Shown here: in pieces, positions 12,575 to 33,637 of the stretch
Position numbering within the stretch: position 1 is the first letter of the stretch
How the letters are laid out: each line of letters begins with the position of its first letter
The notes under the pieces: generated by a model
What the model was told of the DNA's origin: nothing
Seen by the model: only the letters and a program-made list of their open reading frames with translations
The model's database searches: none
Translations under genes and position numbers: made by a program
NCBI GenBank assembly: GCA_045605285.1
Contig: JAZUPR010000019.1
Coordinates: forward strand, 1 to 35,878
Direction: 5' to 3'
Length of the DNA stretch: 35,878 nucleotides
Source: Clostridia bacterium
GTDB lineage: Bacteria; Bacillota; Clostridia; UMGS1810

Positions 12575-13678
12575 TTATTCTATTACTTCTTGTGATGTTT
12601 CTTCCTCTCCAGTCACAGGTTCTCCAGCTATTTCATCTTCTATATCAGAAAAATCTATGCCAAAGAATACTTTCAAAGAGTCAAACACTTCGGGGTTAAG
12701 CTGGCTTATTTTTGATGCAAAAAGGCTTCTGCCACTCTGGTCAAAAGCACTGTACAAGGTAAGAGCATCAGCTATATCACTTGAATAATTAGTATAAACC
12801 GCATCTGTTGTTATTTCGTATTCTGCCTTATCGTCGATTATTTCTCCAAGAACATCTATCACTATTGTGATAATCGCTTGGTGTGGCTCTGTAAATGTAG
12901 ATTTTTTTGATATCAAAACATTTCTTGCAGTAGTAAGCTTTTCTACTATAGTTGCATTTATATTTGTGTAATCAACTGTTTCCTGCGAGCCAGAACCTGA
13001 ACCGGAGCCAGAACCTGAGCCGGAGCCAGAACCTGAGCCACCGCCTATCGAACCACCGGGAACAATAATTGTAGGAGTTTCAACTACAAATCCCGTAAGA
13101 GACATTGCAAGTTCTCCCCTTTTCATATTTTCTGTAGCTCTGAATTTATTCCCGGCTTCTGTCTTCATAAGACCATTTCCAAGAACTTTTTTTACATAAG
13201 CCTCTGCCCATGGAGATATCTTATCAGAAATCACGCCCATATACGGAATATCATACAGATTTGCAACTCTGCAGATTATTGCACACACCTGTTCTCTGGT
13301 AACATATTCATCACCCTTGAATGTACCATCAGGAAATCCGTTTATATATCCCGCTTTTTTACCTATAAGAACGTGCTCATAGTACCATTTATCTTTTGTA
13401 ACATCTGTAAATCCTGTAGTGTCTGCCTCAGTATACTTCCATATACTGTTTATCATTTTACAAAGCTGTGCTCTTGTAAGATTGCCATTTGGCGAGAATG
13501 TTCCATCTCCCATACCGTTTATAATTCCACTGTTTGCGAGTTTATAAATTGCAGTGCCCATATCGGAAGATGCGTCTACATCTTTAAATGTTATTTTATT
13601 GTCAGCATATACTCCGACTGCAGGAATTGATGTAATCATTGCTATTGTTATAAGGATTGATAGAAATTTTTTGAACAT
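12575..13678 (-). CDS. secreted SLH-domain surface protein, 367 aa, with a (GS)n linker
   Basis: Signal peptide MFKKFLSILITIAMITSIPAVGVYA. SLH repeats (FKDVDASS...GDGTFSPNGNLTRAQLCKMI; FTDVTKDKWYYEHV...PDGTFKGDEYVTREQVCAII; a third degenerate copy). GGSIGGGSGSGSGSGSGSGSGSGS linker, then a C-terminal domain of unknown function. Confidence 0.85.
   Translation of the reverse strand: MFKKFLSILITIAMITSIPAVGVYADNKITFKDVDASSDMGTAIYKLANSGIINGMGDGTFSPNGNLTRAQLCKMINSIWKYTEADTTGFTDVTKDKWYYEHVLIGKKAGYINGFPDGTFKGDEYVTREQVCAIICRVANLYDIPYMGVISDKISPWAEAYVKKVLGNGLMKTEAGNKFRATENMKRGELAMSLTGFVVETPTIIVPGGSIGGGSGSGSGSGSGSGSGSGSQETVDYTNINATIVEKLTTARNVLISKKSTFTEPHQAIITIVIDVLGEIIDDKAEYEITTDAVYTNYSSDIADALTLYSAFDQSGRSLFASKISQLNPEVFDSLKVFFGIDFSDIEDEIAGEPVTGEEETSQEVIE
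12988..13041. repeat. 3 x 18-nt tandem repeat encoding the Gly-Ser linker
   Basis: gagccagaacctgaaccg / gagccagaacctgagccg / gagccagaacctgagcca, head to tail. Confidence 0.9.
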
Positions 13679-13751: not shown

Positions 13752-16700
13752 TTAATAGAAGTTTCTCTCGAGGGTTGCAGTATAGTCTACTATTGATTTT
13801 GAATATTTATCAATAATATATTTACCAACTGATGTATCAATCACATCTTTTGATGATGGAGTGAGTTTAGAGCCAATGATGTTTACAACTGTGTCTGCAT
13901 TAAAGATGTTTTCTTCTTCCCTGCCAAATATAATGTCTTCAAATTTTTCAAGGCTTACGCTTATGTCAATTGAATCTATATCCATATCAGCAATTGATGA
14001 AATAATATCTTTGAATTCATCCTCATACTGTGAATAAATTTCATTTATAACAGAAATTTTTGAGAAAATTGCATCAAGTGGTCTTCCTGCAATTGTTCCG
14101 TCAGTATCAAGCTCTGAAATGATGGAAGCAAGTTTTGATATGGAATTATTGATAAGTGTCTCAAATGAAGCATTTGCACTGTCATAATCGCCTGTGTTCA
14201 TTGCATCTATTACAGAGTTTAATCTGTCGCAAAGAGCCTGAAGGTCATCGAATGTATATCCGTTTGGAAGGTTACCCTCTCCAAGGTCTGTGAGAATCTG
14301 TTTTACATTGTCAACTACAGATTTGATAGTGTCTTCATAACCACCTACAGGTGTGCCACCGAGTGAATCTACAACGGTTTTAAGAGAGTCTACCCTTGCA
14401 ATAAGGTCACTGAGAGTATATGAACCAACTATAGGTCTTCCGTTCTCTACATTGTCTGAAAGCTCTTCAAGTTTTTTAATAAATTTCACAAAATCCTTTG
14501 TAAGACTCTTTTTAACAAGAATAAGTTCTTCTTCTGTACAGTTTTGTGTATTATAGAAGCAAAGTGCCTGGTCATAGAGGATAAATGCATCAAGCATTGA
14601 TGTGTAATACTGCATAAAGTCTTTGAAATAATAACCTGTTGCGCCTGTTGTATCATTTATTCTCTGTGAGTCATAGCCTAAAAAAACATTGAACCAATCA
14701 GTTTCTTCTACCAGTTTTTTGAGTGATGTATTCTCGTTATATTTGTAGATGTTATTATTTTTAATTGTATTTGCAAATTTTCCTGAATAGTTTATGTATA
14801 TACCGTGAAGAATGAGTGGTGCATTGATTGTTACAGTAAGGCTGGTTGTATACTCACGCTCAACATTATCTCCCTTAACCGCATCTATAACAGGTCTAAG
14901 GCCATTCCAGTAATCTGCCTTGGCAGCCATGAACATATCTTCTACGATATCTTCTCCAAGGAAATCTATGATATTTCCATAGCCCTTGTCTCTGAGGATT
15001 GTAAGAATTTCATCAAAATCAAATCCGTTAATTGCCTCTCCGACTGCTGATACAAAGTGAATATTGTCCATGTTAACCTTAAAGGATTCTTCCTTATTCT
15101 TAAAGGAATTCATAAAGTTTACAAAAGGTGCATAATTGTCCAGGAAGCTTACGATAGTCTGTGCAAATTGCGGTCTTTCAGTATCGGGGTCCATAGCCAT
15201 TATATGATTTACTATCATATCTACAGTAGCATAGTCCACAACGAGAGCGTCTACCTTTTCATCCGACAATCCTCCAAGATAATCCATAATGAAATTATCA
15301 TCAACAGCATCTAAAATATTTTCATATTTATCGGCAACAAAGCTATCTACAAAATTAGCATTTGCCGGAGTCTGAATAAAGTTGGCTACAGGTGTTATGA
15401 TGTCGTTAACTGCGGCTTCTTTTATTTTTGCGATAAATGGGGTCTTGATGTCTCCCACAAGTGCAATTATATCCGGATTGGTTGCAAGAGTTCCTACTCC
15501 GTTGAAATAGTTTTCTATGAATCTGATGATATTATTTTCAATAAGAGTTTTGATATTTGCATCAATGGTTGTATCTCTGTTTAAATAATCTTTTACAAAA
15601 TCAACAAGTGCATCATTAACATCGTTCTCAGGTAAAGAATTCCAGCCCTGTGAGGTCAATATATCATTAAATGAAGCATCTGACCTGATTATTGCTATAA
15701 TTTCATTTCTTACGCTCGGTTTATCAAGGTTTGAAATAAAAGCATCATTTGCAGCTGTATGTTCTTTTGTGACAACTTCAAGAATCTGTGCTCTGAAACT
15801 GTTGATACCTAAGAGTTCAATAATAAAGGCATTATTGCTTGCAGCAGTGTCAACAAGTGCATCCTTTGCACTTGAAGAAAGAACCTTTTCTATAATATCC
15901 ACTGATTCCTGAAGTGTGCTTGGTACATTAATGTCACCTTTAATTTTATCCTGTATATAGGTTATTCCGTCCAACTTATAGTCATTGCTCTTTAGCTCTG
16001 AACGAATGGCTGGTATACCTACAGACTCTATAAGTGTTCTGCCATCGATATTATCTACAATAGTAGCCATATCAATAAGGCTTACTACAGAGCGAAGTTC
16101 TTCCTCGGAGCCATTGAGCATTGCCTGGATTTTGGTATTTACCTCAGCATTTATCTGGTCATAGTCTATAACGTCAACAATCTTAAGACCATAGTCTTTA
16201 TCCAGAATATTACCCTGGGAATCTACCATTCCTGTTTTTGCGTTTGCTTTATTAAAAGCCGCCTGAATCTTGGAATTAATTTCATTTTTAACATCGGTTT
16301 GACTGAGTGTAAGTCCTGCACTTATCATACCGTCTTTAAGTGTGTCAAAAAATCTTGACTGTGAATCATAGCTGATTTCAAGAACAGGATTTATACCAAA
16401 CACCTGCTTATCAACCTCTGCCACAATATGTTTCTGTCCATAGTAGACATCAATATTTCCGTTAACAGGAGTACTGTTTGTAAACACATCCCAGATACCG
16501 TTTGATTTTTTATAGATAAATTCTTTTCCTACTGTATGTGTATATGTAGCTCCGAGGCCTGTGTATGAAATATCGCTTCTGTCATAAGTCTGGCCTGTTG
16601 TGTCAAGCTTACCTGCATAAATTGTGTCAAGGTTTTTTCCGACATAACTGAGAGTTCGGTTTTCGGCAGGAATTGACTGATTTATATTAACTGTATCAAA

Positions 16701-17747
16701 AACACTTGCAGTGGCACCATTGTGGAATGAAACTGTGTAATAGGTTTCTACACCGCCGCTGTTGCCGCCACCGCTGCTTCCTCCACCGCCAACTGATGCT
16801 TCTTTGAAGGTTGCAGGAGTGTTTAGTATAATATTGTCAAATACATCTTCTGAACGTAAGTTCTCAAAATGAACAGTTCCATTTACGTCATTGATAACAA
16901 CGCCACCGTAAACCTTGGAGGAAATAATTTTAATTCCACCCTCACCGCCTCGGCAAAGGAGTCTGCCTTTAATGATGACATTGTCAAGAATAACTGTGCC
17001 GTTTCCTACTCCATCACCGATGATAAGATCACCCTCAATGGTAATATTTTTAAGAGTTACTCCCGATGTTCTTATAAGTATATTTCCAAATCCAATGGAG
17101 GTTACCTCACCCGGAACAAGGCAATAAACTTTTATAAGATTATATATAAGCTGAGCAAATTCTTCTCTTGTTATATAGTTTTGAGGTTTAAGGTTGCCCT
17201 TGTCATCTCCATTCAAATAGCCATTAATAACAAGCGCAGATGATGCACTCTTTGCCCAATCAGATACAAGATTTCCATCATTAAATTTTAAAAGCGATGA
17301 ATAATCCTCGCTAGAGAGAACAAGTGCTCTCCCTATTGCTACAAAAACCTGTTCTCTGGTTATGTAAGAATCCGGATTCATAGTTGATGCAGAATCACCC
17401 TGGAAGGTTCGCATATTAACTGCCTTTGCAATTTCATCGTAATACCAGTCGCTTTTAGATACATCAGTAAGATGAGATATATCCGCCTTTACAGTTGCAC
17501 CAAAGGCTCTGTTGACAATGGCTGCCATCTCGGCTCTGGTAAGGTTATCCTTAGGATTTATAGTTGAGCTTGTGCGTCCATTTAAAATTCCATTTGCCAC
17601 AGCATGAGTCATAGCATCCTTTGACCAACCCGCGGGGAAGTCTGTAAAGTCTGATACCTGAGCTGCTAACACTGGTGTCACAAGTGTGAAAATCATAGCA
17701 ATCATAGTGATAAAAGCTATGATTTTGCTGTTTGTTCTAAAATACAT
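13752..17747 (-). CDS. large secreted SLH-domain cell-surface protein, 1331 aa
   Basis: Signal peptide (IAFITMIAMIFTLVTPVLAAQV) and three SLH repeats (DFPAGWSKDAM..., LTDVSKSDWYYDEI..., DGNLVSDWAKSA...). Next is a beta-helix-like segment (NITIEGDLIIGDGVGNGTVILDNVIIKGRLL...) and a GGGGSSGGGNSGG linker. The remaining roughly 1000 aa have no motif I recognise. Confidence 0.85.
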   Translation of the reverse strand: MYFRTNSKIIAFITMIAMIFTLVTPVLAAQVSDFTDFPAGWSKDAMTHAVANGILNGRTSSTINPKDNLTRAEMAAIVNRAFGATVKADISHLTDVSKSDWYYDEIAKAVNMRTFQGDSASTMNPDSYITREQVFVAIGRALVLSSEDYSSLLKFNDGNLVSDWAKSASSALVINGYLNGDDKGNLKPQNYITREEFAQLIYNLIKVYCLVPGEVTSIGFGNILIRTSGVTLKNITIEGDLIIGDGVGNGTVILDNVIIKGRLLCRGGEGGIKIISSKVYGGVVINDVNGTVHFENLRSEDVFDNIILNTPATFKEASVGGGGSSGGGNSGGVETYYTVSFHNGATASVFDTVNINQSIPAENRTLSYVGKNLDTIYAGKLDTTGQTYDRSDISYTGLGATYTHTVGKEFIYKKSNGIWDVFTNSTPVNGNIDVYYGQKHIVAEVDKQVFGINPVLEISYDSQSRFFDTLKDGMISAGLTLSQTDVKNEINSKIQAAFNKANAKTGMVDSQGNILDKDYGLKIVDVIDYDQINAEVNTKIQAMLNGSEEELRSVVSLIDMATIVDNIDGRTLIESVGIPAIRSELKSNDYKLDGITYIQDKIKGDINVPSTLQESVDIIEKVLSSSAKDALVDTAASNNAFIIELLGINSFRAQILEVVTKEHTAANDAFISNLDKPSVRNEIIAIIRSDASFNDILTSQGWNSLPENDVNDALVDFVKDYLNRDTTIDANIKTLIENNIIRFIENYFNGVGTLATNPDIIALVGDIKTPFIAKIKEAAVNDIITPVANFIQTPANANFVDSFVADKYENILDAVDDNFIMDYLGGLSDEKVDALVVDYATVDMIVNHIMAMDPDTERPQFAQTIVSFLDNYAPFVNFMNSFKNKEESFKVNMDNIHFVSAVGEAINGFDFDEILTILRDKGYGNIIDFLGEDIVEDMFMAAKADYWNGLRPVIDAVKGDNVEREYTTSLTVTINAPLILHGIYINYSGKFANTIKNNNIYKYNENTSLKKLVEETDWFNVFLGYDSQRINDTTGATGYYFKDFMQYYTSMLDAFILYDQALCFYNTQNCTEEELILVKKSLTKDFVKFIKKLEELSDNVENGRPIVGSYTLSDLIARVDSLKTVVDSLGGTPVGGYEDTIKSVVDNVKQILTDLGEGNLPNGYTFDDLQALCDRLNSVIDAMNTGDYDSANASFETLINNSISKLASIISELDTDGTIAGRPLDAIFSKISVINEIYSQYEDEFKDIISSIADMDIDSIDISVSLEKFEDIIFGREEENIFNADTVVNIIGSKLTPSSKDVIDTSVGKYIIDKYSKSIVDYTATLERNFY

Positions 17748-18450: not shown

Positions 18451-20094
18451 CTATTTAACAGCTACAATTTTGTTGACACCTGCGTTTTCGGGGCCGTAGA
18501 ACACACCGTCAAGCTTACCGCCTGTTTCAATATCAACAAAAATTGTCATTCCGCTTTTAACAGTAATATCCTCTACATTTTCTGCAATTGTAAAAAGCTT
18601 TGATAGCTTTGTATTCTCAGGTACAGATTTTATATCCAATTTTACTCTGTATGTATACCCGTCTCCGTTATTTATAACAAGGCTTGGATAAAAGTTGATA
18701 TCCACTTTATAACCTGCCAAATTCATTTCCTTTGCAATAATAGACAACATATTGGTATAGATAAGGGAGTACTGTCTTGCATTATAATAAGCATTTTTGG
18801 CAATTCCAATTCTTTCGCCCTTATCATATGTTATAAATTCCGTATTATATATATCATTCGGAATATCATTCAATATAAGTGCGTAATCCTGGTGATTTTT
18901 CGGATATGAGTTAATATTGGTGCGGAGTTTCTCGCTCCTTTTATAAGTCTTATCTGAGAAAACAGTCTTTTTTGAAAATCCACAGATTGAATCAGCCTGA
19001 ATAATAAGGTTGGTAATCTGTTTTAATGTGGCTTTTTCACCGGCCTTTATCTTACCATCTTTATACGGGAATATGCCATTTTTCTTGGCAAAGGAGAGCA
19101 CTTTGTTACGGGTTTCGCTACCTGCATTGGTTATGTCAGCATAGTAATTATCCTTATCTCCAAAACCAAGATTTATATCTGCAGTTTTAGCCAATGCAAA
19201 GGATACTGCACAAACAGCATCTTCCATAGTTGCGGTTGCATCAATGTAGGTTTCGTTAACCTTATCTTCACCTATGCAGTATTTTCCATATACATTGAGA
19301 GAACGTACATATTTATGCTGGAACGGGTCTTCGCTATAAGAAAAATTTGAATACTTTGGATCATGCTCGTTGCATATAAGCCTCATTGCCATATGTGCAA
19401 GTTCACCATTTGTTACGGTTGCATCAGACTTATATTCTTTATCATCGAAAAGATTAAAGCTATCATACACAGCTTTATATACCTCATCGCTGATATTATC
19501 TATAAAATCTTTCCCTGAAACAGATGCATTTTCTCTGGCTCTTACAATAAGAGCAGCGGCCTCTGCTCTGGTGAGAGAACTGTCGAGACGAAGGTTTATG
19601 TAGTCGTCACCCATCATAATTTCACGACTATATATCCATGCAATAGCATCTGAATTTTTTCCCTGTCTTGTAATGACAGAAGGAACTGATTCTGAAACAA
19701 CTGGCGAACCATTTCTTTTCCAAAGAAGATTTGCCACATCGCCACGGGTAATGGCCTCATTTGGCTTAAATGCAAATTCAGTTACAGGCTCAAGTCCCGA
19801 TGACATTACATAGTCATAAAACCAATCGCTTTTTTCTACATCGACATACTCTGATTGAGTGACAGTGTTGCCTTTGCCAATCATTTTTACAAATTCAGCT
19901 CTTGAAACAGTTGAATTCGGCTTGAATGTACCGTCTGTAAAACCATTTATTGTGCCCTCTCCCACAAGCTTGTTTACAGCATTATACGCCCAATGACCGG
20001 ATGATAAATCCTTGAAGGATGCGGCAGACACAGTAATAGCCGACGGAATCAGCATTGCTATCACAAGAAAAACTGCCAAAATTCTTTTTTTCAT
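18451..20094 (-). CDS. secreted SLH-domain surface protein, 547 aa
   Basis: Signal peptide (KKRILAVFLVIAMLIPSAITVSAA). SLH repeats (FKDLSSGHWAYNAVNKLV...TDGTFKPNSTVSRAEFVKMI; YVDVEKSDWFYDYV...; a third around NSDAIAWIYSREIM...SSLTRAEAAALIV). The C-terminal roughly 350 aa are unassigned. Start moves to ATG 20094 with AAAGGAG 9 nt upstream. The track start at 20100 is a TTG. Confidence 0.85.
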   Translation of the reverse strand: MKKRILAVFLVIAMLIPSAITVSAASFKDLSSGHWAYNAVNKLVGEGTINGFTDGTFKPNSTVSRAEFVKMIGKGNTVTQSEYVDVEKSDWFYDYVMSSGLEPVTEFAFKPNEAITRGDVANLLWKRNGSPVVSESVPSVITRQGKNSDAIAWIYSREIMMGDDYINLRLDSSLTRAEAAALIVRARENASVSGKDFIDNISDEVYKAVYDSFNLFDDKEYKSDATVTNGELAHMAMRLICNEHDPKYSNFSYSEDPFQHKYVRSLNVYGKYCIGEDKVNETYIDATATMEDAVCAVSFALAKTADINLGFGDKDNYYADITNAGSETRNKVLSFAKKNGIFPYKDGKIKAGEKATLKQITNLIIQADSICGFSKKTVFSDKTYKRSEKLRTNINSYPKNHQDYALILNDIPNDIYNTEFITYDKGERIGIAKNAYYNARQYSLIYTNMLSIIAKEMNLAGYKVDINFYPSLVINNGDGYTYRVKLDIKSVPENTKLSKLFTIAENVEDITVKSGMTIFVDIETGGKLDGVFYGPENAGVNKIVAVK

Positions 20095-20115
20095 AATCAA
20101 AATCTCCTTTAAAAG

Positions 20116-20970
20116 TTATTCAAGTATCTTAAAAGATGTAAATGCAGCCTCCGGCTCCATATTGCATCTTAATTTGTATATAGGAACGTTTTTCAATATT
20201 TCTCCTATAATAGAAAGTGCGTGCTCTACAAGTTCCGAATCAAACGGAGTTTTTATCTGATCCATTATAAGTGGAAATGCCTGCAGTGACGAAATTTTTT
20301 CTATGGAATTTTCCTTATCTCTTTGAAGGAAAACTATAGCCTTAAGGGGAACAGATATATTATTGTTTATTCCGGAAGAACCGGCAAAAGGTGTGCCTGA
20401 TATATAGATTTTTTCGTCTTTCTTAAAAATAAGAGGGGTATCGTCATTTATGTATTGACAATCCGGTATATGCTTTATCCAGAGGGATGTATGAGTTGAT
20501 TTTCCAACTCCCGAATCCGCTGAAAAAGCTATACCTCTGCCATTATGCGAAACAGCTGACGAGTGATATACAAGCGAGCCATTTGTTAATGCAATAAAAT
20601 GAAATATATGAGAGAGAGTATTGATAAAAAATGCTCCGTCGTCAATTCCAAGATTTGTCTTTATATCATAAGAATTGAAGACAATATTTTTAAAACTCTT
20701 ATCAAAATCCACCTTAACTACTGCACCCTCTACCTCAGGAAAAAATATGTAATAAGACCTGGTGCCCTCAATACTCGTCCACAATTCATAATCCCATTTT
20801 GCAACAATATTTTCGTCGGGAACAGGGAAAGTGTGGTCGAAAAATTTAATATTTATAGTAGAATGTACACTATCACAATTATGCTGATATTTTTTTAATT
20901 CACTCAGTACATATTCATTTTGACAACCAACGATAGCCAAATTGATATTTCCTATTTTATATGTATACAT
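20116..20970 (-). CDS. HPr-kinase-C-terminal-like P-loop protein (HprK-related kinase family), 284 aa
   Basis: LVYHSSAVSHNGRGIAFSADSGVGKSTHTSLW followed by INDDTPLI and SGTPFAGSSG. This matches the H-x-S-A-V...G-x-x-G-x-G-K-S-T P-loop plus DD arrangement of HprK-like kinases. Its stop is 21 nt from the start of the SLH gene, with that gene's RBS in between. Confidence 0.6.
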   Translation of the reverse strand: MYTYKIGNINLAIVGCQNEYVLSELKKYQHNCDSVHSTINIKFFDHTFPVPDENIVAKWDYELWTSIEGTRSYYIFFPEVEGAVVKVDFDKSFKNIVFNSYDIKTNLGIDDGAFFINTLSHIFHFIALTNGSLVYHSSAVSHNGRGIAFSADSGVGKSTHTSLWIKHIPDCQYINDDTPLIFKKDEKIYISGTPFAGSSGINNNISVPLKAIVFLQRDKENSIEKISSLQAFPLIMDQIKTPFDSELVEHALSIIGEILKNVPIYKLRCNMEPEAAFTSFKILE

Positions 20971-21001
20971 TTAAAATTCACCCAAAATATTTTATATATA
21001 T

Positions 21002-21030
21002 AGTATAACAGAATTTTAATGTATTTTCAA
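21002..21030 (-). promoter_or_regulatory. candidate sigma-A promoter for the HprK-like/SLH transcription unit
   Basis: Minus strand: TTGAAA, 17 nt, TATACT, located just after the peptide-gene terminator. Confidence 0.5.
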
Positions 21031-21060
21031 CTGTTAATTATTTGATTTTAGTGTCTATAT

Positions 21061-21094
21061 GCAACAAAAAGGCAGTGTCAACACGACACTGCCT
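21061..21094 (-). terminator. rho-independent terminator after the 60-aa peptide gene
   Basis: AGGCAGTGTC-AACAC-GACACTGCCT (perfect 10-bp stem, 5-nt loop), followed on the minus strand by TTTTGTTGC. Confidence 0.8.
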
Positions 21095-21126
21095 TAATAT
21101 ATTTACGAAAAATAATTTAATTCAAA

Positions 21127-21309
21127 TTAACCATTTACCTTCTTTATAACAGATATCTGTGCTGTAGCATAAGAAGTAAGTGAAACTGATTTGTTTGGTG
21201 TGCTACCAAAACCAAATGTACGTGTTTCTTTTTTTGATGTCAATTTGCTCAATGATTCTTTAATAGATAACTCTACAATTTCTGCAGATGGTTTAATATA
21301 TTTTTTCAT
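21127..21309 (-). CDS. 60-aa peptide, candidate RiPP-type precursor
   Basis: MKKYIKPSAEIVELSIKESLSKLTSKKETRTFGFGSTPNKSVSLTSYATAQISVIKKVNG. AGGAGGA RBS 9-10 nt upstream of the ATG, and a dedicated terminator 33 nt after the stop. Has a Y4-x-x-P7 motif near the N-terminus and a Ser/Thr-rich C-terminal half. Confidence 0.6.
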   Translation of the reverse strand: MKKYIKPSAEIVELSIKESLSKLTSKKETRTFGFGSTPNKSVSLTSYATAQISVIKKVNG

Positions 21310-21368
21310 GTTCCTTATTCCTCCTATTGAATTTACTTGTTCTTAATTAATTAAAATGTGGTTCGTCA

Positions 21369-22277
21369 TTATTTCCAATACGGAACAAGTGTCACATCAC
21401 TCATATCTTCAGCTGCAAGAAGAACTGCATAGTAGCCATCAGTAACACCAAGTGATTTATAATATCCGCCAGTTGGTTCCTCAGGATCAAGCTCAAATGC
21501 TTCGCCAGCCTTTGTAGCATATACTCCATACTCTGTTACCTCACTCACATCTCCTGTAATCTGACAGAGCAAGTATCTATATTCGAGTTCATTTCCCTCA
21601 GCCGTAACCACTGCATTAAAGTCTGCTGAATCAACAGCAACAGAGGTTATAGCTACAGGGCTTGATGTATTAACAGTTTTAATCTCAACAACGTTGCCTG
21701 CTTTTACAGTAAATCCTCCTACTGTAAGTTCCTGCTCATCGCCATCAATTTTAACTGATGAAAGTTCATAACCTTCTTTAACATTTACAGTCAAGAAACC
21801 ATCCTCTGTGTTACCTAATGTATAAGGATAGTCTATAATATTAAGTTCGCTATCTTTAACTTCATAAGAATCAACACCAGCATCTGTAGTGATTGTAACT
21901 CCTGCTGCACTAACTGTTTGGTTAGCATATACTCTAAGTCCTGCAGCTACATCTGGATCAACTGAACCATAAAGGATCTGAGCAGTATTTGATGTAAGTG
22001 CATCGTATTCAAATTTTATTGTGCCACCATCGGACTCTACCTGATTTATATAAACGATATCAGCTTCTTTTTCAACTGTACCATTTACACTTGCAAGGTA
22101 TGTAACCATAACGCCTTTTTCAACGCCTGAAACAGTAGAAACAACGTGTGGCTTCTGGCTTGTTTCGTTATAGGTTGTAAGTGTTGATGCTGTGGCAGCA
22201 AATGATGTTACGGTTGTTGTTAACATAGCAACTGTGATTGCAGTAACTGCAATTGTTTTAAACAAATTATTTTTCAT
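21369..22277 (-). CDS. secreted protein of unknown function, 302 aa
   Basis: Start moves to MKNNLFK (ATG 22277, AGGAG upstream) because the predicted promoter would place the transcript start at about the track ATG. Signal peptide KTIAVTAITVAMLTTTVTSFAATAS. The sequence is beta-rich and has no SLH repeats or other motif I can name. Confidence 0.7.
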   Translation of the reverse strand: MKNNLFKTIAVTAITVAMLTTTVTSFAATASTLTTYNETSQKPHVVSTVSGVEKGVMVTYLASVNGTVEKEADIVYINQVESDGGTIKFEYDALTSNTAQILYGSVDPDVAAGLRVYANQTVSAAGVTITTDAGVDSYEVKDSELNIIDYPYTLGNTEDGFLTVNVKEGYELSSVKIDGDEQELTVGGFTVKAGNVVEIKTVNTSSPVAITSVAVDSADFNAVVTAEGNELEYRYLLCQITGDVSEVTEYGVYATKAGEAFELDPEEPTGGYYKSLGVTDGYYAVLLAAEDMSDVTLVPYWK

Positions 22278-22310
22278 TGTATAAACACTCCTATCTTCAT
22301 TCATATAATG

Positions 22311-22339
22311 ATTCTATCAAAAATCAAATTGAATGTCAA
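22311..22339 (-). promoter_or_regulatory. candidate sigma-A promoter for the secreted-protein/peptide unit
   Basis: Minus strand: TTGACA, 17 nt, TAGAAT. Confidence 0.55.
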
Positions 22340-22434
22340 GTATTTTTAGTATCAAATATTCATTTTTTTAATTTTGTTGCACTTTGTACATATTTATATT
22401 TAATTCTTTGAACATAATGTATGAAATTTACATA

Positions 22435-24066
22435 TTATTCACAAACACATCCATCTTTTATATGTAAAATCCTGTCACATATATCACGAGTATTTTGTCT
22501 GTGTGTAATTATAATGCAGGTTTTATCGTTCATATTCTTAATTTTGGAAACAACTTCCTTTTCTGTGTCTTCATCAAGGGCTGAGGTGGCCTCATCGAGA
22601 AGAATTACAGGGCGTGACGAGTAAAAAGCTCTTGCCAGGGCAAGTCTTTGAATCTGGCCCTCGGAAAGACCGAGTCCTCCTTCTCCCAGAAGGGTGTCAA
22701 ATCCATCGGGTAGTGTCATTATATAATCATATATACACGCATCCTCAGAGGCTTTTTTCAATCTTTCACAGTCAATATCACAACAGGAAAACGCTATGTT
22801 TTCTTTTATGGTTCCGGAAAATATCATATTCCCCTGTGGCACATATGCAAACAGCTCCTTTGATGGCGGATAAGCACAATTTTCGTTTTCGCTCTCAGCA
22901 TACACCTTCCCCTTGTCGGGCTTTATAACACCCATAAGCAAAAGCATCATCGTGCTCTTTCCCGCTCCGGAGCTACCCACAACAGCAACAGTATCACCTT
23001 TGTTTATCACGAGGTCTGCATCTTTAAGAATATATTCTTCATTATATGAAAAATCAACATCCTTAAATACTAATGAAGAAAAGCTTCTATTTATATATGT
23101 AGTTTTTTCTTCTATATTTTCAAGCTCCATGATTCTCTCGGCAGATGCTGACATAGAATAATACCCCGATATTAAGGACGAAAATTCCTTAAAGGGAATC
23201 TGAAGCTGGTCTACAAGCTGAAGAACAGCCATAAGTGTTCCTACGGTCATTATACCGATAGAAATTTTATAAGAACACCAGATAAGAGCCAGATAATAAC
23301 CAAAGGTCATAATAACAAAAAACAAAAGATTTGCAAGAATGGTTATTATACCTCTTTTTACACTTACCTTGTAATTATCCGTTTGATATTTTTTTAGCTT
23401 TGATACTGAGAATGCCTCTTTTACAAAAGTCTTTATGGCAAGGATATTTTGTATGCTCTCTTGCATATACGATTTTACCACACCGGAGGTATGCTGACAT
23501 TTTTTATGCAGGGGTTTTATCTTTTTTCCGTACAGTCTGGTGGCAATTGATACCATCGGAAAAACAATTATGCACACAACTGCAAGGTCTTTATCTATAA
23601 TAAAGAGTGCTCCAAGGCTGAATAAAAACTGAGTGGCAGTTGTAAAAAACTGAGGAACAATTGACATAATGCCATCAGAAACCACAGACACATCGCTTGT
23701 AAGTCTGTTTACAAGTTCACCGGAGTGCACATCTGACACCTTTTGGTAATCACCGTTTAAAACAGCAGAAAAGGAGCTAAGCTGAATATTGTGAAAGAGT
23801 CTTACAGATACCCTCACTTCAACCACCGTGTAGACAATGTGAATGAGAATCTGGCCAAGCATTAAGAGTGCAAGAGTAATTACAGGCTGTGACAGGGACA
23901 TATCGAGAGTGCCGGTTGCCACATCAATAACGGTTTTTGATGCAAAAGCAAACCTTACTGACAGATAAGACATTGCCATCCCCAAAAAAGAAAGGAAAAT
24001 AATTTTGCACAATTCTTTTTTTGATTTCTGAAAAATCCATGAAAAAGCAGTTTTATCTTTTGCCAC
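22435..24066 (-). CDS. ABC exporter half-transporter (N-terminal 6-TM domain fused to an NBD), 543 aa
   Basis: Walker A GSSGAGKST, signature LSEGQIQRLALARA, Walker B ILLDEATSALD, H-loop ITHR. Hydrophobic N-terminal half with no C39 peptidase domain. GTG start with AAGGAGG 7 nt upstream, overlapping the peptidase gene by 14 nt. Confidence 0.9.
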   Translation of the reverse strand: MAKDKTAFSWIFQKSKKELCKIIFLSFLGMAMSYLSVRFAFASKTVIDVATGTLDMSLSQPVITLALLMLGQILIHIVYTVVEVRVSVRLFHNIQLSSFSAVLNGDYQKVSDVHSGELVNRLTSDVSVVSDGIMSIVPQFFTTATQFLFSLGALFIIDKDLAVVCIIVFPMVSIATRLYGKKIKPLHKKCQHTSGVVKSYMQESIQNILAIKTFVKEAFSVSKLKKYQTDNYKVSVKRGIITILANLLFFVIMTFGYYLALIWCSYKISIGIMTVGTLMAVLQLVDQLQIPFKEFSSLISGYYSMSASAERIMELENIEEKTTYINRSFSSLVFKDVDFSYNEEYILKDADLVINKGDTVAVVGSSGAGKSTMMLLLMGVIKPDKGKVYAESENENCAYPPSKELFAYVPQGNMIFSGTIKENIAFSCCDIDCERLKKASEDACIYDYIMTLPDGFDTLLGEGGLGLSEGQIQRLALARAFYSSRPVILLDEATSALDEDTEKEVVSKIKNMNDKTCIIITHRQNTRDICDRILHIKDGCVCE

Positions 24067-24523
24067 AGAACAACCTCCTTATTCTTATGAGAACCTCAAG
24101 GATAATGCGTCTTAGAGGGAAAACAAATACCCACACACGAGAATACAGCTTATAAACGGGATTGCCCGGGTCTATTTCAATCCCTTTTCTTGTAAAGCCT
24201 ACGACCTTTGCTATTATCTGAGATTTTTCCACTCCATATTCTTTTTCTGTTTCATTATCACCCGCAATTATATATGTTCCGTTTTTTATGCCGATTACAC
24301 GATGCAAAATATAATCTCCGTCTTTTCGACGATGAAGTACCACGTCATATTTCTTTATATGGTCTGCATTCCCTACGGTTACCTGGTCTCTTCTGTTGGA
24401 GAGAAACGGGAACATACTTATCCCTGTGACGGTAAACCTCACCTTGCCGCCGGAATTTACCTTCTCTTCAATCACAGGTGCAATATCACCAATACTGAAC
24501 TCAATCTTTTCTACATCAACCAT
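24053..24523 (-). CDS. S24/S26-family serine peptidase, S26B (SipW/ER-type Ser-His)-like, 156 aa
   Basis: GISMFPFL (nucleophile Ser box), YILHRVIGI (His in the position of the S26A Lys box) and IIAGDNE (GDN box). There is no N-terminal hydrophobic anchor. The ATG immediately follows the TAA of the PqqD-like gene (GAATAAATGG). Confidence 0.65.
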   Translation of the reverse strand: MVDVEKIEFSIGDIAPVIEEKVNSGGKVRFTVTGISMFPFLSNRRDQVTVGNADHIKKYDVVLHRRKDGDYILHRVIGIKNGTYIIAGDNETEKEYGVEKSQIIAKVVGFTRKGIEIDPGNPVYKLYSRVWVFVFPLRRIILEVLIRIRRLFCGKR

Positions 24524-24787
24524 TTATTCAATTACCTTTTTTTCTTTAAGTATATTTACAAATTCGCAAACATCGTTATACGCCACATCTTTGCTAACTT
24601 CAAACTCAGAGCACATTTTATCAACTACAAAATCTATGTCTGAGTCTTCCATAAGGAGATTCCATATAAAAGCTCCTGTTTCATTGATTGTAATCATAGC
24701 TGAAAAATCAAGAAGATTTTCTCCTGACGGAACTATAACGTATGTATCGGCAACATTTCTTAATTCAAAGCCTTTTGAAATTTTCAT
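24524..24787 (-). CDS. PqqD-family protein (RiPP recognition element-type), 87 aa
   Basis: MKISKGFELRNVADTYVIVPSGENLLDFSAMITINETGAFIWNLL...FVVDKMCSEFEVSKDVAYNDVCEFVNILKEKKVIE. Size and pattern (beta strands, then LNETGAFIW, then a helical tail) are typical of PqqD/RRE. Start set at ATG 24787 (GGAAAGGA upstream). The track's extension to 24892 would run through the predicted promoter and into a terminator. Confidence 0.7.
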   Translation of the reverse strand: MKISKGFELRNVADTYVIVPSGENLLDFSAMITINETGAFIWNLLMEDSDIDFVVDKMCSEFEVSKDVAYNDVCEFVNILKEKKVIE

Positions 24788-24830
24788 TGCAGCAAATCCT
24801 TTCCGAAATATTATAAAAAACATTTTTCTT

Positions 24831-24859
24831 ATTTTATCATAGGAAGATAAGGTTGTCAA
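24831..24859 (-). promoter_or_regulatory. candidate sigma-A promoter for the PqqD-peptidase-ABC operon
   Basis: Minus strand: TTGACA, 17 nt, TAAAAT. Confidence 0.6.
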
Positions 24860-24995: not shown

Positions 24996-25430
24996 TTAAA
25001 GATATGCTTTAAGGTCTCTTCGAAGACTCTCTTCAATATCAATAAGTCTTCTGGTGGCTTGAATCACATCTCTGTCTGCAGCCGGATATTTATTAAGATA
25101 TTTATGAAGAGACTTTATTCCCATATCGCATCCGTCGGTCATAAGGTCTGCAACAACTTTATCCGTCTCTTTTGCAGCAAGTTTTACATTAATTTTCATC
25201 CAGGACATTCCCTTTGCCATAGGATTTGGCTCTCCCTCAGGAGCATCAAACTTAGACAAAAGCCTATGCAAATCCTTATCAAGCTCTGTATGTCCCTCTT
25301 TTGAGTGATGCAAAATCTCGCGAAGGTCGTCACTATCTACCCTGTCAATAACCTCGTCTATGGAACTGATGCCCATCTTTACCCCTGAATCACATTCTCT
25401 CAAAAGTTCTATAGTATCGTTTTTTTCCAT
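24996..25430 (-). CDS. hypothetical all-helical cytoplasmic protein, 144 aa
   Basis: Clean ORF with an AAAGGGTGGG RBS and its own terminator. Charged, helix-prone sequence with no catalytic motif recognised. Confidence 0.6.
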   Translation of the reverse strand: MEKNDTIELLRECDSGVKMGISSIDEVIDRVDSDDLREILHHSKEGHTELDKDLHRLLSKFDAPEGEPNPMAKGMSWMKINVKLAAKETDKVVADLMTDGCDMGIKSLHKYLNKYPAADRDVIQATRRLIDIEESLRRDLKAYL

Positions 25431-30327: not shown

Positions 30328-31512
30328 TTATTCATACAAAACCCTGATAGCAGTCTTAAGCTGAATATCCTGATCATAGGTAAGCTCTGATACCGATTTT
30401 CCAAGAAGGCTTTCGTCAAGAGACACCTCCATATCAGGCTTTATACCTACTTTATCTATACACTCTCCGCTTGGAGTATAATATTTTGCAGTAGTAAGCT
30501 TGAATGCTGAATTGTCGGGAAATTCTACAAGAGACTGAACAAGCCCTTTGCCAAAAGTTTTTTTGCCTACAAGTTTACCGCGTTTTAAATCTCTTATTGC
30601 ACCCGAGAGAACCTCTGAGGCACTTGCGCTTTCTTCATTTACAATTACACAAAGGGGAATATTGATATAGCTTTCGTCGGAAGAATATTTTGTTTCATTT
30701 CCCTTTTTATCCTTAATGGTAAGGATAGTGCCCTCGGGTAAGAGCTCATCTGCAATATTAACTACTGACCCAAGCATTCCGCCCGGATTATTTCTAAGGT
30801 CTAAAACAAGACCGTTTATTTTCTGATTGGTAAGGCTATCAATATGTGACATAAACTCTTTATAGGTCTTTGGCCCAAAATCTGTAATTCTTATATAGCC
30901 TGTATTTGAATTGATTACTCTGGAATAAACTGTATCTACAGAAACTGTTTCACGAATGAGGGTGATATCTTTTTTCTCTCCGTTATGCATGACGGTGACA
31001 ACAACATCGTTATCTCCTTTTTCTGCATACATACCCTTGATTTTATTTATTGATTCCTGATAGTTTTCTCCGTTTGCGACCTCGCCGTCAACAGCTACGA
31101 TAACATCTCCGACTTGTATGCCCGCTTTCTTGGCAGGGGTATTTTCAAAGACAGACGTAATTCTTATGTCATTTCCTTCAATGACAACTTCAACACCTAT
31201 TCCCTGATAATCACTGCCCATGCTCTCAAGCATTGCAGAGTAGTTTTTTTCATCGATATATACGGTGTACGGGTCGCCAAGGCTTTCGGCATAATATGAG
31301 AGTGCTGCATTTTCCGCTTTTTTCTTATCATACTCATTTATATATGAGTCTTCAATAAGGCTCTCTATTTTGCCTATTTTCTGACTGAATGTCATATCTC
31401 CTGACATAGAGGTTATTGTGTTATATATTTTTTCTCCCAAGGGAGTGAGATAAAATGCTGTTGTCAATATGACAGTGACAACAGCAGTTGTAAACATCTT
31501 TTTGTTGTTCAT
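30328..31512 (-). CDS. S41-family C-terminal processing peptidase (CtpA/CtpB-like), 394 aa
   Basis: N-terminal anchor, PDZ-like region (GIGVEV...PAKKAGIQVGDVIVAVDG), catalytic Ser box NEESASASE and Lys box GKKTFGKG. Start set at ATG 31512. Confidence 0.9.
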   Translation of the reverse strand: MNNKKMFTTAVVTVILTTAFYLTPLGEKIYNTITSMSGDMTFSQKIGKIESLIEDSYINEYDKKKAENAALSYYAESLGDPYTVYIDEKNYSAMLESMGSDYQGIGVEVVIEGNDIRITSVFENTPAKKAGIQVGDVIVAVDGEVANGENYQESINKIKGMYAEKGDNDVVVTVMHNGEKKDITLIRETVSVDTVYSRVINSNTGYIRITDFGPKTYKEFMSHIDSLTNQKINGLVLDLRNNPGGMLGSVVNIADELLPEGTILTIKDKKGNETKYSSDESYINIPLCVIVNEESASASEVLSGAIRDLKRGKLVGKKTFGKGLVQSLVEFPDNSAFKLTTAKYYTPSGECIDKVGIKPDMEVSLDESLLGKSVSELTYDQDIQLKTAIRVLYE

Positions 31513-31558
31513 AAAATATGCATCTCCAACATAATGCAGCGTTTGCTGCAAAAAATTA

Positions 31559-32710
31559 TTATGGCAAATATTGCTGTGGATTTGTATGTGCTCCGTTTAT
31601 AAGAACTTCAAAATGAAGGTGGGGTCCTGTGGACATACCTGTGGAGCCTACCTTGGCAATAAGTTCGCCCTGAGCTACGGTCTGACCTACAGACACACAA
31701 AGTCTGCTGGCGTGCGCATACAAGGTGCTGACGCCGCTGCCGTGGCTTATAACAACATAGTTACCATAACCGCCTGCGTTATAACCTGCAACGATTACCT
31801 CGCCTGCTGCTGCCGCAACAATATTGGAGCCGTGAGGTGAGCCTATATCTATGCCTGTATGCTGACGGAGTTTGCCTGTGACAGGGTGAACTCTCATATA
31901 ATACGGGCTTGTTACAGGGCCTGATGACGGCCATATCATACTGCCACTATATTTACCTGAGTATGAGCTTCTATTAGCAAGTCTGTTTATCTCAGCTCTT
32001 GCATTTGCCTCTGCTCTTTCCTGCTCTTCAAGAGCCTTTTTATAAGAGCTCTGGTCTGCCATGAGGCTATCTATAAGTCTCTGGCTTTCTGCTCTCTTTG
32101 CTGAAAGAGCGCTCATCTGGGCGTCTTCATCTTTTTTAAGCGCTACGAGGGCATCTTTTTCTTTAACAAGTTCTTCTTTTAAATCAGCAATCTTTTTTTC
32201 TATGGCTTTTAGCTCATCGAGCTTATTGCTGTCGTATTTTACAATCTGCTTTACAACAGACAATCTGGAAAGCAAATCGCCAAAGGATTTTGAATTAAGC
32301 AGTATTTCAAGATATGTTACAGAGCCTCTTTCCACCATCATTTTTGCACGGTGAAGATATGCATCATATTGCTCCTTGCTGTTTTTCTCGGCAACATCAA
32401 GCTCATTTTGTTGTTTTTCTATTTTCTCGTTTGAGACTCTTATTTTAGAATTAAGACTATCTATTTTTTCCTGAACCTTACTTATTTCTGAATCAATAGC
32501 CTGTCTCTTTTTATTATTATCGCTTATTTTGCCCTGAGTGGCATTGATTTTATCTTTAAGTTCTTTTTGCTGCCTCTGCGCCTGTTCGAGCTTTGACTGA
32601 GCAGACTGCGCACTTGCACCTGTTGGCAGGAAAGTTATCAATGATGTGGCCAGGAAAGCGATGAGTGCAATGATTGCAAAAACTCTGACAAAAACATTAT
32701 TCTTCTTCAA
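31559..32710 (-). CDS. coiled-coil M23-family metallopeptidase (EnvC/PcsB-like FtsEX partner), about 383 aa
   Basis: Signal/anchor, a coiled-coil of about 230 aa, then the M23 motifs HTGIDIG (HxxxD) and GPHLHFE (HxH). The start is ambiguous. The TTG at 32710 has GGAGGG 7 nt upstream; the track start is the TTG at 32737. Confidence 0.85.
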   Translation of the reverse strand: MKKNNVFVRVFAIIALIAFLATSLITFLPTGASAQSAQSKLEQAQRQQKELKDKINATQGKISDNNKKRQAIDSEISKVQEKIDSLNSKIRVSNEKIEKQQNELDVAEKNSKEQYDAYLHRAKMMVERGSVTYLEILLNSKSFGDLLSRLSVVKQIVKYDSNKLDELKAIEKKIADLKEELVKEKDALVALKKDEDAQMSALSAKRAESQRLIDSLMADQSSYKKALEEQERAEANARAEINRLANRSSYSGKYSGSMIWPSSGPVTSPYYMRVHPVTGKLRQHTGIDIGSPHGSNIVAAAAGEVIVAGYNAGGYGNYVVISHGSGVSTLYAHASRLCVSVGQTVAQGELIAKVGSTGMSTGPHLHFEVLINGAHTNPQQYLP

Positions 32711-32737
32711 AATTCTGACCCTCCGTAAATTATTCAA

Positions 32738-33637
32738 TCAAACCCTAAGGTATCTTCTTACAGCAATTGCACTTCCAAATGCTCCGATGAATGAGCCAAG
32801 AAGCAGATATGAAACGAGAATTGTGTTCCATATATCACCAAATGACAAAAGCTGAAGTATGGAGCTTATGGATGAGTTATTGTCTATAACCGACATAACT
32901 CCCATATAAGCTACCTGTGTGATGAAAAATGATATGACAGCGGCTACGCATCCCACCATAACACCTTCTATAATAAAAGGCCAACGAATGTAGGCATCGG
33001 TAGCTCCTACGTATTTCATAATATTTATTTCTCTGCCTCGGCTGTGAACTGCAAGTTTGATAGTATTTGAAATGATAAACAAGCTGATAATGGCAAAAAT
33101 GATTATAATCCACACAGACACATGTCTTATAAGCTGTGTGACACTATTTACAAGGCTTACAATATCCTGTTTATTCTCTACTCTTTCAACACCCGGAATG
33201 GCTTCTATTTTATCGGAAATGTCAGAAGATGTGTTGATATCTTTAAGCGTAATTTTAAATGAATCGGAAATTAAATCAGCTGGAAGCCCGTTAAAAGCTG
33301 CCAGTTCATCCTCATCCAATCCCTCTTTGAAATCGGCAAAGGTTTTTTCTCCTGTTTCAAAGCTGATTTCTTTTATTTCTTCTATTTGCTTTATCTGGTT
33401 TGAAATATTTTGTATTTGTCCACCGTATTTAGCCTCGTTTGTCACATAAGCCTGTATCTGACATTGATTTGCCAGTTCCTGCCCTAAATGATTTATATTC
33501 ATTGTGAGCACAATAAATACTCCGAATATAAACAGACAAGAGGTTACAACAAAGAGTGATGCAATTGTCATCAATCCGTTTTTTGCAAGACCTGAACAAG
33601 CCTCGGTCATAAATCTTTTAAACATTCTAATCGACAT
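32738..33637 (-). CDS. ftsX: cell-division ABC transporter permease FtsX, 299 aa
   Basis: FtsX topology: TM1, a large extracellular loop, then three C-terminal TMs. It lies directly downstream of ftsE, and ATG 33637 (AAGGTGGG RBS) overlaps the ftsE 3' end. Confidence 0.85.
   Translation of the reverse strand: MSIRMFKRFMTEACSGLAKNGLMTIASLFVVTSCLFIFGVFIVLTMNINHLGQELANQCQIQAYVTNEAKYGGQIQNISNQIKQIEEIKEISFETGEKTFADFKEGLDEDELAAFNGLPADLISDSFKITLKDINTSSDISDKIEAIPGVERVENKQDIVSLVNSVTQLIRHVSVWIIIIFAIISLFIISNTIKLAVHSRGREINIMKYVGATDAYIRWPFIIEGVMVGCVAAVISFFITQVAYMGVMSVIDNNSSISSILQLLSFGDIWNTILVSYLLLGSFIGAFGSAIAVRRYLRV

Follow-up and report, generated by a model that had tools for sequence, protein, structure and literature searches.

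The stretch analysed here (the window: 35,878 nt, or 35.9 kb, of contig JAZUPR010000019.1 from a Clostridia bacterium) carries on its minus strand seven co-oriented genes that resemble a cluster for a ribosomally made, post-translationally modified peptide (RiPP). Arranged in three putative transcription units, they encode a PqqD-family RiPP recognition element (RRE; B), a serine peptidase (S) and an ABC half-transporter (D) in unit 1, a secreted protein and a 60-aa candidate precursor peptide (A) in unit 2, and a P-loop protein of the HprK/PEPCK fold, hereafter the kinase-like protein (K), with an S-layer homology (SLH) protein in unit 3 (Table 1). An earlier note, drawn from the sequence alone, had called these seven genes together with three promoter-like sites and a terminator; all lie where it had placed them, and their coordinates were confirmed.

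Within unit 1, the start of the peptidase gene directly abuts the stop of the RRE gene, and the peptidase and ABC open reading frames (ORFs) overlap by 14 nt; in unit 3, the SLH gene lies about 15 nt downstream of the kinase-like gene. The two promoter-like sites matching 11 of 12 consensus positions are the best matches in the 8-kb region; such hexamer pairs, frequent in this AT-rich DNA, number 47 against 31 expected. For units 2 and 3, the −35 and extended −10 elements are invariant in three close relatives while the flanking intergenic sequence varies, and this conservation is a stronger argument for the putative promoters than the consensus match. The gene preceding unit 1 ends in a terminator, and the unit 1 site stands just downstream of it. 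The terminator behind the precursor gene is likewise conserved in the relatives, with compensatory substitutions in its stem.

Table 1. Features of the peptide locus, with amino-acid identity between the window and the three close relatives L086-L088
Feature	Coordinates	Strand	Description	Identity to L086-L088
Promoter-like site, unit 1	24831-24859	(-)	TTGACA-17-TGATAAAAT (TAAAAT), 11/12, TG extension	
RRE, PqqD family	24524-24787	(-)	87 aa; Pfam PF05402 E=6e-17	89-95%
S26B-like serine peptidase	24053-24523	(-)	156 aa; GISMFP (Ser36), LHRV (His74)	79-90%
ABC half-transporter	22435-24066	(-)	Pfam ABC_membrane + ABC_tran	84-87%
Promoter-like site, unit 2	22311-22339	(-)	TTGACA-17-TAGAAT, 11/12, TG extension	
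Secreted protein	21369-22277 (/22304)	(-)	302 aa (311 aa from alternative start); Sec signal peptide	39-57%
Precursor peptide	21127-21309	(-)	60 aa; strong AGGAGG ribosome-binding site; N-terminus MKKYIKPSAEIVEL	57-74%
Intrinsic terminator 3' of precursor gene	21069-21095	(-)	12-bp stem + T-run	
Promoter-like site, unit 3	21002-21030	(-)	TTGAAA-17-TATACT, 10/12, TG extension	
HprK/PEPCK-fold P-loop protein	20116-20970	(-)	284 aa; PF27840 (ScmC); LppK-like putative peptide kinase	78-80%
SLH protein	18451-20100	(-)	Pfam SLH 1e-20	80-83%
HU				97-100%

The three close relatives (L086-L088) show full synteny with the window. More widely, the kinase-like protein has 1013 database relatives, with family PF27840 ('ScmC') on all relatives listed; a scan of one genome per species confirmed at least 496 relatives, and the family falls into more than 1000 protein clusters. 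Eighty loci were kept, almost all from metagenome-assembled genomes (MAGs) of Clostridia (Oscillospiraceae, Acutalibacteraceae, Fimenecus, Monoglobales), together with Clostridium pascui and Sporofaciens. In the loci retrieved, ORFs were called, searched against the window proteins and sorted into clusters drawn from 83 loci; co-occurrence was counted over the 40 loci having at least 6 kb on each side of the kinase gene. The earlier note had made co-occurrence of these genes beyond this genome a test of its reading, and it was found: the kinase gene is accompanied by a PqqD gene in 35 of the 40 loci, an ABC gene in 26, the peptidase in 22, a fused Wzz-ParA protein in 17, an SLH protein in 11 and the secreted family in 10. 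The PqqD gene is usually adjacent to it, the ABC protein is MsbA-like, the peptidase S26-like and the fusion a Wzz + ParA/AAA_31 protein. Other recurrent clusters correspond, by Pfam, to pilus genes, LysM, M23, LCP (LytR-CpsA-Psr) and MatE.

A number of architectures are seen repeatedly. One has the order of the window, B-S-D / secreted protein-A / K-SLH, often followed by HU; in another, K-B-S-D form a compact operon, in many cases with Wzz-ParA and type IV pilus genes behind it. The others are K-B-D without the peptidase, pilins-B-K-LCP, and K-SLH alone. The earlier note had seen none of the enzymes that define known RRE-dependent RiPP classes, and this held: neither a lasso cyclase, B2 protease, radical SAM, YcaO nor LanB/M protein was found by Pfam in the window (ORFs of at least 120 aa), where Asn_synthase and Transglut_core3 were equally missing from the ORFs scanned, and no RiPP core enzyme occurs among the recurrent neighbour families of the 83 loci (Pfam on cluster representatives). 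The same scan of the window found no glycosyltransferase and no NTP_transf_5 protein, the latter judged at E <= 1e-5.

This enzyme set matches that of the linear polyphosphorylated peptides (LPP), defined in Bacilli by Popov et al. (Nat Commun 2026; PMC13381572). The core biosynthetic gene cluster (BGC) of Paenibacillus alginolyticus, lppA-K-B-S-D-N, encodes a precursor with the motif YxxPxVLxHQxIxFET|xxS, also given as Px9Fx[T/A], an HprK-like kinase (LppK), a discrete RRE (LppB), a SipW-like peptidase (LppS), an MsbA-like pump (LppD) and an NTP_transf_5 protein (LppN). By experiment, LppK puts up to four phosphates on core Ser3, and LppS (Ser29/His68/Asp93) removes the leader only in the presence of LppB, whose Asp70 hydrogen-bonds the leader Tyr (PMC13381572). 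The domain models by which that paper recognizes LPP loci (TIGR04249, TIGR04352 and TIGR04355 for the kinase group, TIGR02228 for SpI, PqqD, and TIGR02203 for the exporter) are the same models that match the window proteins, weakly for the kinase-like protein and the peptidase. Its Supplementary Data 1 records a few clostridial SpI+RRE pairs, in the minor sequence similarity network (SSN) clusters 4 and 9, as 'RRE others' with no precursor recorded, and its text mentions neither Clostridia nor SLH anywhere (PMC13381572). Our comparison sequences came from the supplement of the paper and from a Paenibacillus frigoriresistens locus (L089) with an LppS sharing 97% identity with that of the paper. 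Literature searches on ScmC/SynChlorMet and on HprK-like + RRE + S24 returned nothing relevant.

Comparison of the four enzymes with their LPP counterparts revealed detectable homology throughout. The best NCBIfam and PDB matches of the RRE are lasso B1 RREs. It is 34-36% identical over its full length to RREs encoded beside clostridial SpI proteins (SSN cluster 4, Supplementary Data 1 of Popov et al.) and 20-35% identical to LppB itself, in a partial alignment only. The leader-contact residues N33, D70 and F74 of LppB align with N35, D72 and F76 of the window protein; among 50 clostridial RREs, these are kept in 49, 44 and 37 respectively, and the Trp-specific PbaB1 has Gln where LppB has Asp70. 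By pairwise similarity and these pocket residues, the window protein is LppB-like and is predicted to bind the YxxP leader.

The peptidase reaches 31.7 bits (1e-7) with TIGR02228 sigpep_I_arch, under the cut-off of 51.85, and is 25% identical to LppS over 133 aa (E=3e-10) and 36% identical to the SpI proteins of SSN clusters 9 and 4. Its Ser36 and His74 are invariant in 44 of 44 sequences. Read from the sequence, its N-terminus is a hydrophilic segment of 25 residues without a membrane anchor, so that the active site should be cytoplasmic. A tblastn search of a plasmid collection with LppS found no match. The half-transporter, whose top NCBIfam matches are MsbA_rel and MsbA and in which Pfam detects no peptidase (C39) domain, aligns over 544 aa with the LppD orthologue from Paenibacillus at 28% identity (E=5e-67).

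The kinase-like protein scores low with the named models (HprK_rel_B 26.5 bits and HprK_rel_A 15.2, cut-offs 200; TIGR04249 22.4, cut-off 125) and is 24% identical to the LppK orthologue over 209 aa (E=4e-10). Alignment of its family profile with the LppK orthologue sequence (hhalign) gave a probability of 98.4% and E=6e-15 over 203 columns, and PF27840 is carried by the LppK orthologues of four Bacilli loci as by the homologues of the window protein. In its AlphaFold2 model (pLDDT 93.6), all 47 significant Foldseek matches are HprK/P or PEP carboxykinase, and the family shares the invariant motif HxS...FSAxSGxGKSTH...NDD. By homology and fold, it is thus an LppK homologue and a putative kinase. 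Identity to a Paenibacillus lasso kinase is 22% (E=1e-6). Of the profile matches that the earlier note had asked for, only PqqD on the RRE was clear: PF07475 gave no match, the peptidase matched only models of archaeal/SipW-type signal peptidases, each below its cut-off, and the kinase TIGR models were weak.

The precursor carries a leader of about residues 1-19 (possibly to 22) with Y4-I-K-P7, a YxxP motif. Across the three close relatives, residues 1-21 hardly change; the core does, apart from the motifs FGFG and LT[ST]Y[AS]T, which are kept. Recognisable homologues occur in about 24 more distant loci as ORFs of 33-64 aa with ribosome-binding sites, 170-400 nt upstream of the kinase gene in most and 500-2700 nt in a few; they share MKxYxKPxxxVVELSVKE[N/S][I/L][A/S]A with a variable middle, and those of the window-type architecture end in an [L/M]T[T/V/S]Y[N/D]L-like motif. 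From this conservation, the 60-aa ORF, which the earlier note had left to be checked in this respect, is a genuine gene showing the contrast of conserved leader and variable core that RiPP precursors typically have. The leader has a Glu at Y+14, the register of Glu(-2) at the LPP FET| site. Two candidate cut sites fit about equally, after KES (Y+16, the LPP register) or after LSK/IAA (Y+19); the second register, IAA|LP (LSK|LT in the window), fits the 'hydrophobic at -3' rule better.

Precursors of the compact operon have short, acidic, Gly-rich cores (LSVGTGPVEGGGDGWIEI; L003 8955-9077, L031 9205-9327, L037 9303-9425) unlike the core in the window, and judging from these sequences the family probably makes several product types. 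A lasso-like reading of type B cores (ring-forming Ser/Gly + Glu8) was ruled out, no cyclase whatsoever being present. We also considered the YxxP leader as a secretion signal on larger proteins encoded upstream of the kinase; these do not carry it and are Sec signal peptide proteins, pilins or housekeeping proteins, and the idea was rejected.

One cultured species bridges the two groups. In Clostridium pascui DSM 10365 (L049, 5400-14479), a peptide gene is followed by K-B-S-D and then by NTP_transf_5 (2e-53), which is the lppAKBSDN order. The precursor of this species, 33 aa (MKKEYEAPVVEIEEYEISNIISTSGGVDTGEDF), is encoded directly behind a 1452-aa Ig/cohesin/Flg_new surface protein. C. pascui would be a practical experimental entry point.

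Taken together, these comparisons make it probable that the locus represents the LPP-type RiPP pathway in a rearranged clostridial form, with an LPP-like maturation mechanism. The homology of the four enzymes, the conservation of catalytic and leader-binding residues, the co-occurrence of the genes and the conservation of the peptide are the observations on which we base it. They bear out the earlier note in seeing a RiPP-like cluster with a discrete RRE, a leader protease of the signal-peptidase fold, a kinase-like tailoring candidate and an exporter. Its proposal of an undescribed route without a known class-defining enzyme has been overtaken, because Popov et al. (PMC13381572) have since defined the LPP class by the same enzyme set: the maturation route is already known from Bacilli, and what is new is a divergent, previously undescribed clostridial variant.

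In the proposed mechanism, the 60-aa precursor would be made from unit 2 and its leader MKKYIKPSAEIVELSIKES would dock onto the discrete RRE through Tyr4, Pro7 and the following beta-strand. The HprK-fold protein would then modify the core with ATP, Ser/Thr phosphorylation being the most likely chemistry. The RRE would present the end of the leader to the cytoplasmic SipW-like Ser/His peptidase, which would cut about 16-19 residues after the Tyr, behind KES or LSK, and the product would leave through the MsbA-like half-transporter. RRE-dependent cleavage by LppS and polyphosphorylation of Ser3 by LppK were demonstrated for the Paenibacillus system only and are carried over to this locus by analogy. 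For the window, phosphorylation of the peptide by the kinase-like protein, the residue modified, the precise point of cleavage and what the product does are inferred.

Several observations weigh against an LPP-like pathway here. Clostridial precursors keep neither the LPP motif Px9Fx[T/A] nor the phosphorylated Ser3: the leader ends in KE[S/N], with Lys at -3 where LPP has Phe and Ser/Asn at -1 where LPP has Thr/Ala, and core position +3 is Lys or Ala instead of Ser (the core in the window begins LSK). The modification site, and even the chemistry, may therefore differ. NTP_transf_5 (LppN), part of the LPP core, is missing from the window and was found in only one of the 40 loci with complete flanks, that of C. 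pascui. The essential Asp93 of LppS aligns with Glu95, present in 39 clostridial sequences, and the score of the RRE against LppB does not exceed its scores against lasso B1 proteins. The peptidase is absent from 13 of the 35 RRE-containing loci, so that its cleavage is not universal in the family. Finally, one kinase-SLH pair with HU (L001, 10001-12534) stands without RRE, peptidase, ABC or peptide genes in 10 kb on each side, and similar lone pairs occur in L017, L025, L041 and L058, on contigs cut short upstream; HU accompanies the lone pair in L001, L017 and L025. Such pairs may mean that the kinase-like protein acts on a different or a further substrate or has a second role; alternatively, these genomes may carry the other units at another place. 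For the clostridial members as a whole, all the support is comparative.

The surroundings of the precursor point to the cell surface. The secreted protein has a Sec signal peptide with predicted cleavage after SFAATA, followed by three predicted Ig-like beta-sandwich domains; its AlphaFold2 model (pLDDT 84) is all-beta with three domains, for which Foldseek returned generic Ig/adhesin folds only, and the 302-aa protein has no Pfam, NCBIfam or PDB sequence match. While the flanking genes are 78-100% identical in the close relatives, it evolves far faster than any other gene here (Table 1), with a conserved signal peptide and first ~80 residues, which suggests diversifying selection on a surface-exposed protein. 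In all 24 peptide-bearing loci, the gene 17-63 nt upstream of the peptide encodes a Sec-signal protein, drawn from several sequence clusters (sec311-like, cluster 54) or, in C. pascui, the Ig/cohesin/Flg_new protein. The SLH protein combines N-terminal SLH domains with about 350 aa of unknown fold, which have no Pfam or PDB sequence match (the PDB matches are to Sap/SLH domains only), and its gene follows the kinase gene in 32 loci, some of them without other cluster genes. Given this constant pairing of the precursor with a secreted-protein gene and the coupling of kinase and SLH genes, the product probably acts at the cell surface and not as a diffusible antibiotic; this is the weakest of our conclusions.

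Three clade-specific arrangements were also observed. A fused Wzz + ParA/AAA_31 (BY-kinase-like) protein of about 490 aa is encoded directly 3' of the ABC gene in those 17 loci (L003 13191-14666, L012 13028-14551, L045 12532-14058 and 14 others). In Acutalibacteraceae (L076 7752-11625; L082, L084, L085, L069), tandem type IV pilin genes (prepilin motif G|FTLVE), as many as three, directly precede the PqqD gene, with the kinase-like gene and a LytR-CpsA-Psr transferase gene also after the pilins; no peptidase, ABC gene or YxxP peptide was found there. In Fimenecus (L045 8067-9788, with 9 loci like it), the gene directly upstream of kinase-RRE-ABC-Wzz/ParA encodes a membrane protein of about 573 aa (LysM, G5, M23 peptidase), and no S26-like peptidase was found in these loci. 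As for Bacilli, the lpp clusters of two Paenibacillus loci (L089 and L092) lie after separate Wzz and ParA genes and an ORF of about 570 aa (L089 4937-6889, L092 3964-5886), with lppA starting 13 nt behind it. This ORF has no Pfam match in either locus, shows a Sec-type signal peptide in the translation from L089, and was not found mentioned in searches of the LPP paper (PMC13381572).

The system might instead be mainly a device for cell-surface assembly, in which the matured peptide, in place of being a free bioactive compound, is a structural or anchoring partner of the secreted and/or SLH protein, or the primer of a wall-linked polymer. The Sec-protein gene in front of every peptide gene, the kinase-SLH coupling and the divergence of secreted protein and peptide core, much faster than that of their neighbours, speak for it, as do the Wzz/ParA-type proteins, LCP transferase and type IV pilins attached in other clades and the position of Bacilli LPP within capsule loci (PMC13381572) with adjoining Wzz + ParA. 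All of this is gene neighbourhood alone; the pairing with a secreted protein is missing in two of the four Bacilli LPP loci examined (Neobacillus and B. timonensis), and fast evolution of a surface protein requires no peptide partner. We regard this explanation as unlikely; it is a reading of what the product does, and an LPP-type maturation mechanism would be consistent with it.

A second alternative separates the two halves of the locus: the RRE, peptidase and ABC transporter would be the entire pathway, the peptide would undergo cleavage and export only, without modification, to act as a leader-dependent bacteriocin or signal, and the kinase-like and SLH proteins would serve a separate cell-envelope function next door. 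Three units with their own promoters, the lone kinase-SLH pairs and the lack of a conserved Ser at the LPP phosphosite would all fit, and LppS cleaves unphosphorylated LppA in vitro (PMC13381572). The unphosphorylated Paenibacillus precursor is nevertheless processed poorly in vivo (PMC13381572). Moreover, in most loci no gene stands nearer to the RRE gene than the kinase-like gene, which often overlaps it within one operon (ScmC-PqqD-S26-ABC), and the peptide gene lies upstream of the kinase gene in every peptide-bearing locus, even in L050 and L065, which have only the genes for the secreted protein, peptide and kinase; we regard a functional separation as unlikely. That the locus is a decayed, non-functional lasso cluster which lost its cyclase and B2 is very improbable, since the lasso B1 matches of the RRE, the lasso-like YxxP leader and the HprK-like kinases of paeninodin clusters are outweighed by a cyclase-less arrangement kept with intact ORFs across at least 496 species-level genomes, by genes conserved at 57-95% (amino acid) among close relatives with invariant catalytic residues, and by a dedicated serine peptidase in place of B2.

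Within the preferred LPP-type reading, a more tentative extension, to which we give only limited credence, is that the machinery matures a possibly phosphorylated peptide that is the dedicated partner of the hypervariable Ig-like and the SLH proteins, with no diffusible product. Such a peptide could, for example, attach the secreted protein, which has no anchor of its own, to the wall, or serve as primer for a polymer linked to it; if so, Clostridia of the gut would be using RiPP chemistry to construct or vary their cell surface. The first description of LPPs dates from 2026, covers Bacilli alone and gives neither a final product nor a biological role. A divergent branch of their machinery, widespread as a large family in uncultured gut and rumen Clostridia, offers in its regular link to surface proteins (Ig-like secreted, SLH, Wzz/ParA-type, LCP, pilins) a testable lead on the purpose of this RiPP class, and supplies many natural variants for studying how an RRE, a leader and a signal-peptidase-like protease recognize one another.

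Elsewhere in the window, Pfam identified genes for PBP, rpoB/rpoC, spoIVA, two further SLH proteins, HU, QueT, an AMP-binding enzyme, an acyltransferase, DAG kinase, MgtC, S41 protease, M23 peptidase, FtsEX and a PucR regulator; an Rfam scan of the whole window gave zero matches. The two further SLH genes (12575-13678, 367 aa; 13752-17747, 1331 aa) lie just downstream of HU, placing the locus within an S-layer/surface-protein neighbourhood, and the close relatives have SLH proteins of other sizes at this position. Directly upstream of unit 1, a 144-aa gene (24996-25430) with a weak DUF2383 match and its own strong terminator is syntenic and 89-94% conserved in the close relatives; it was not found beside the system in distant loci. 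An FtsE-like ABC ATPase, FtsX, a PcsB-like M23 peptidase and an S41 (CtpB-like) protease at 30328-34313 form a cell-division/wall-remodelling block, probably unrelated to the peptide cluster.

Among known systems, ScmC/SynChlorMet and 'HPr-rel-A' share with the locus the P-loop HprK-like superfamily and a PqqD-like partner. The window differs from both in scores of 15-27 bits against cut-offs of 125-200 and in having no radical SAM ScmE/ScmF; PqqD_rel_X is not among its NCBIfam matches, and the link to 'HPr-rel-A' that the earlier note had drawn through TIGR04352/04353/04355 falls with scores far under the cut-offs. SipW-type (S26B) signal peptidases of Bacillus have in common with the peptidase the fold family, the Ser-His pair and the GxSMxP and HR motifs. 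It is set apart from these housekeeping enzymes by sub-cut-off scores (NF046067, 17.5 bits against 190), by the lack of an N-terminal anchor, by a gene that abuts the RRE gene and by its proposed substrate, an RRE-presented leader instead of a Sec signal peptide. Paeninodin-type lasso clusters (A, C, B1, B2, D, HprK-like kinase, nucleotidyltransferase) have in common with the locus a discrete B1-type RRE and a [Y/W]xxP leader, an ABC exporter and an HprK-like kinase that depends on the leader. Unlike them, the window and the recurrent neighbours of the 83 loci have neither the Asn-synthetase-like macrolactam cyclase nor the transglutaminase-like B2, the leader protease is a serine peptidase, and the kinase-like protein does not match PF07475 Hpr_kinase_C, as the lasso kinases do.

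Closest of all is LPP. The window departs from it in its three transcription units, in the leader end KE[S/N] instead of FE[T/A] without the conserved Ser3, in Glu as third catalytic residue of the peptidase where LppS has Asp, in a 5-residue hairpin insertion of the RRE relative to LppB, in the absence of the nucleotidyltransferase, in a precursor always paired with a secreted surface protein and a kinase gene coupled to an SLH protein, and in its taxon, Clostridia (gut and rumen MAGs), a group outside the analysis in the LPP paper. Both nonetheless combine a YxxP-leader precursor with the same Tyr to Glu(-2) spacing, a discrete RRE with a Tyr-type pocket, an anchorless SipW/archaeal-type Ser/His peptidase, a PF27840 kinase-like protein of the HprK fold and an MsbA-like exporter, with four detectably homologous enzymes, no macrolactam cyclase and a shared association with cell-envelope or polysaccharide genes.

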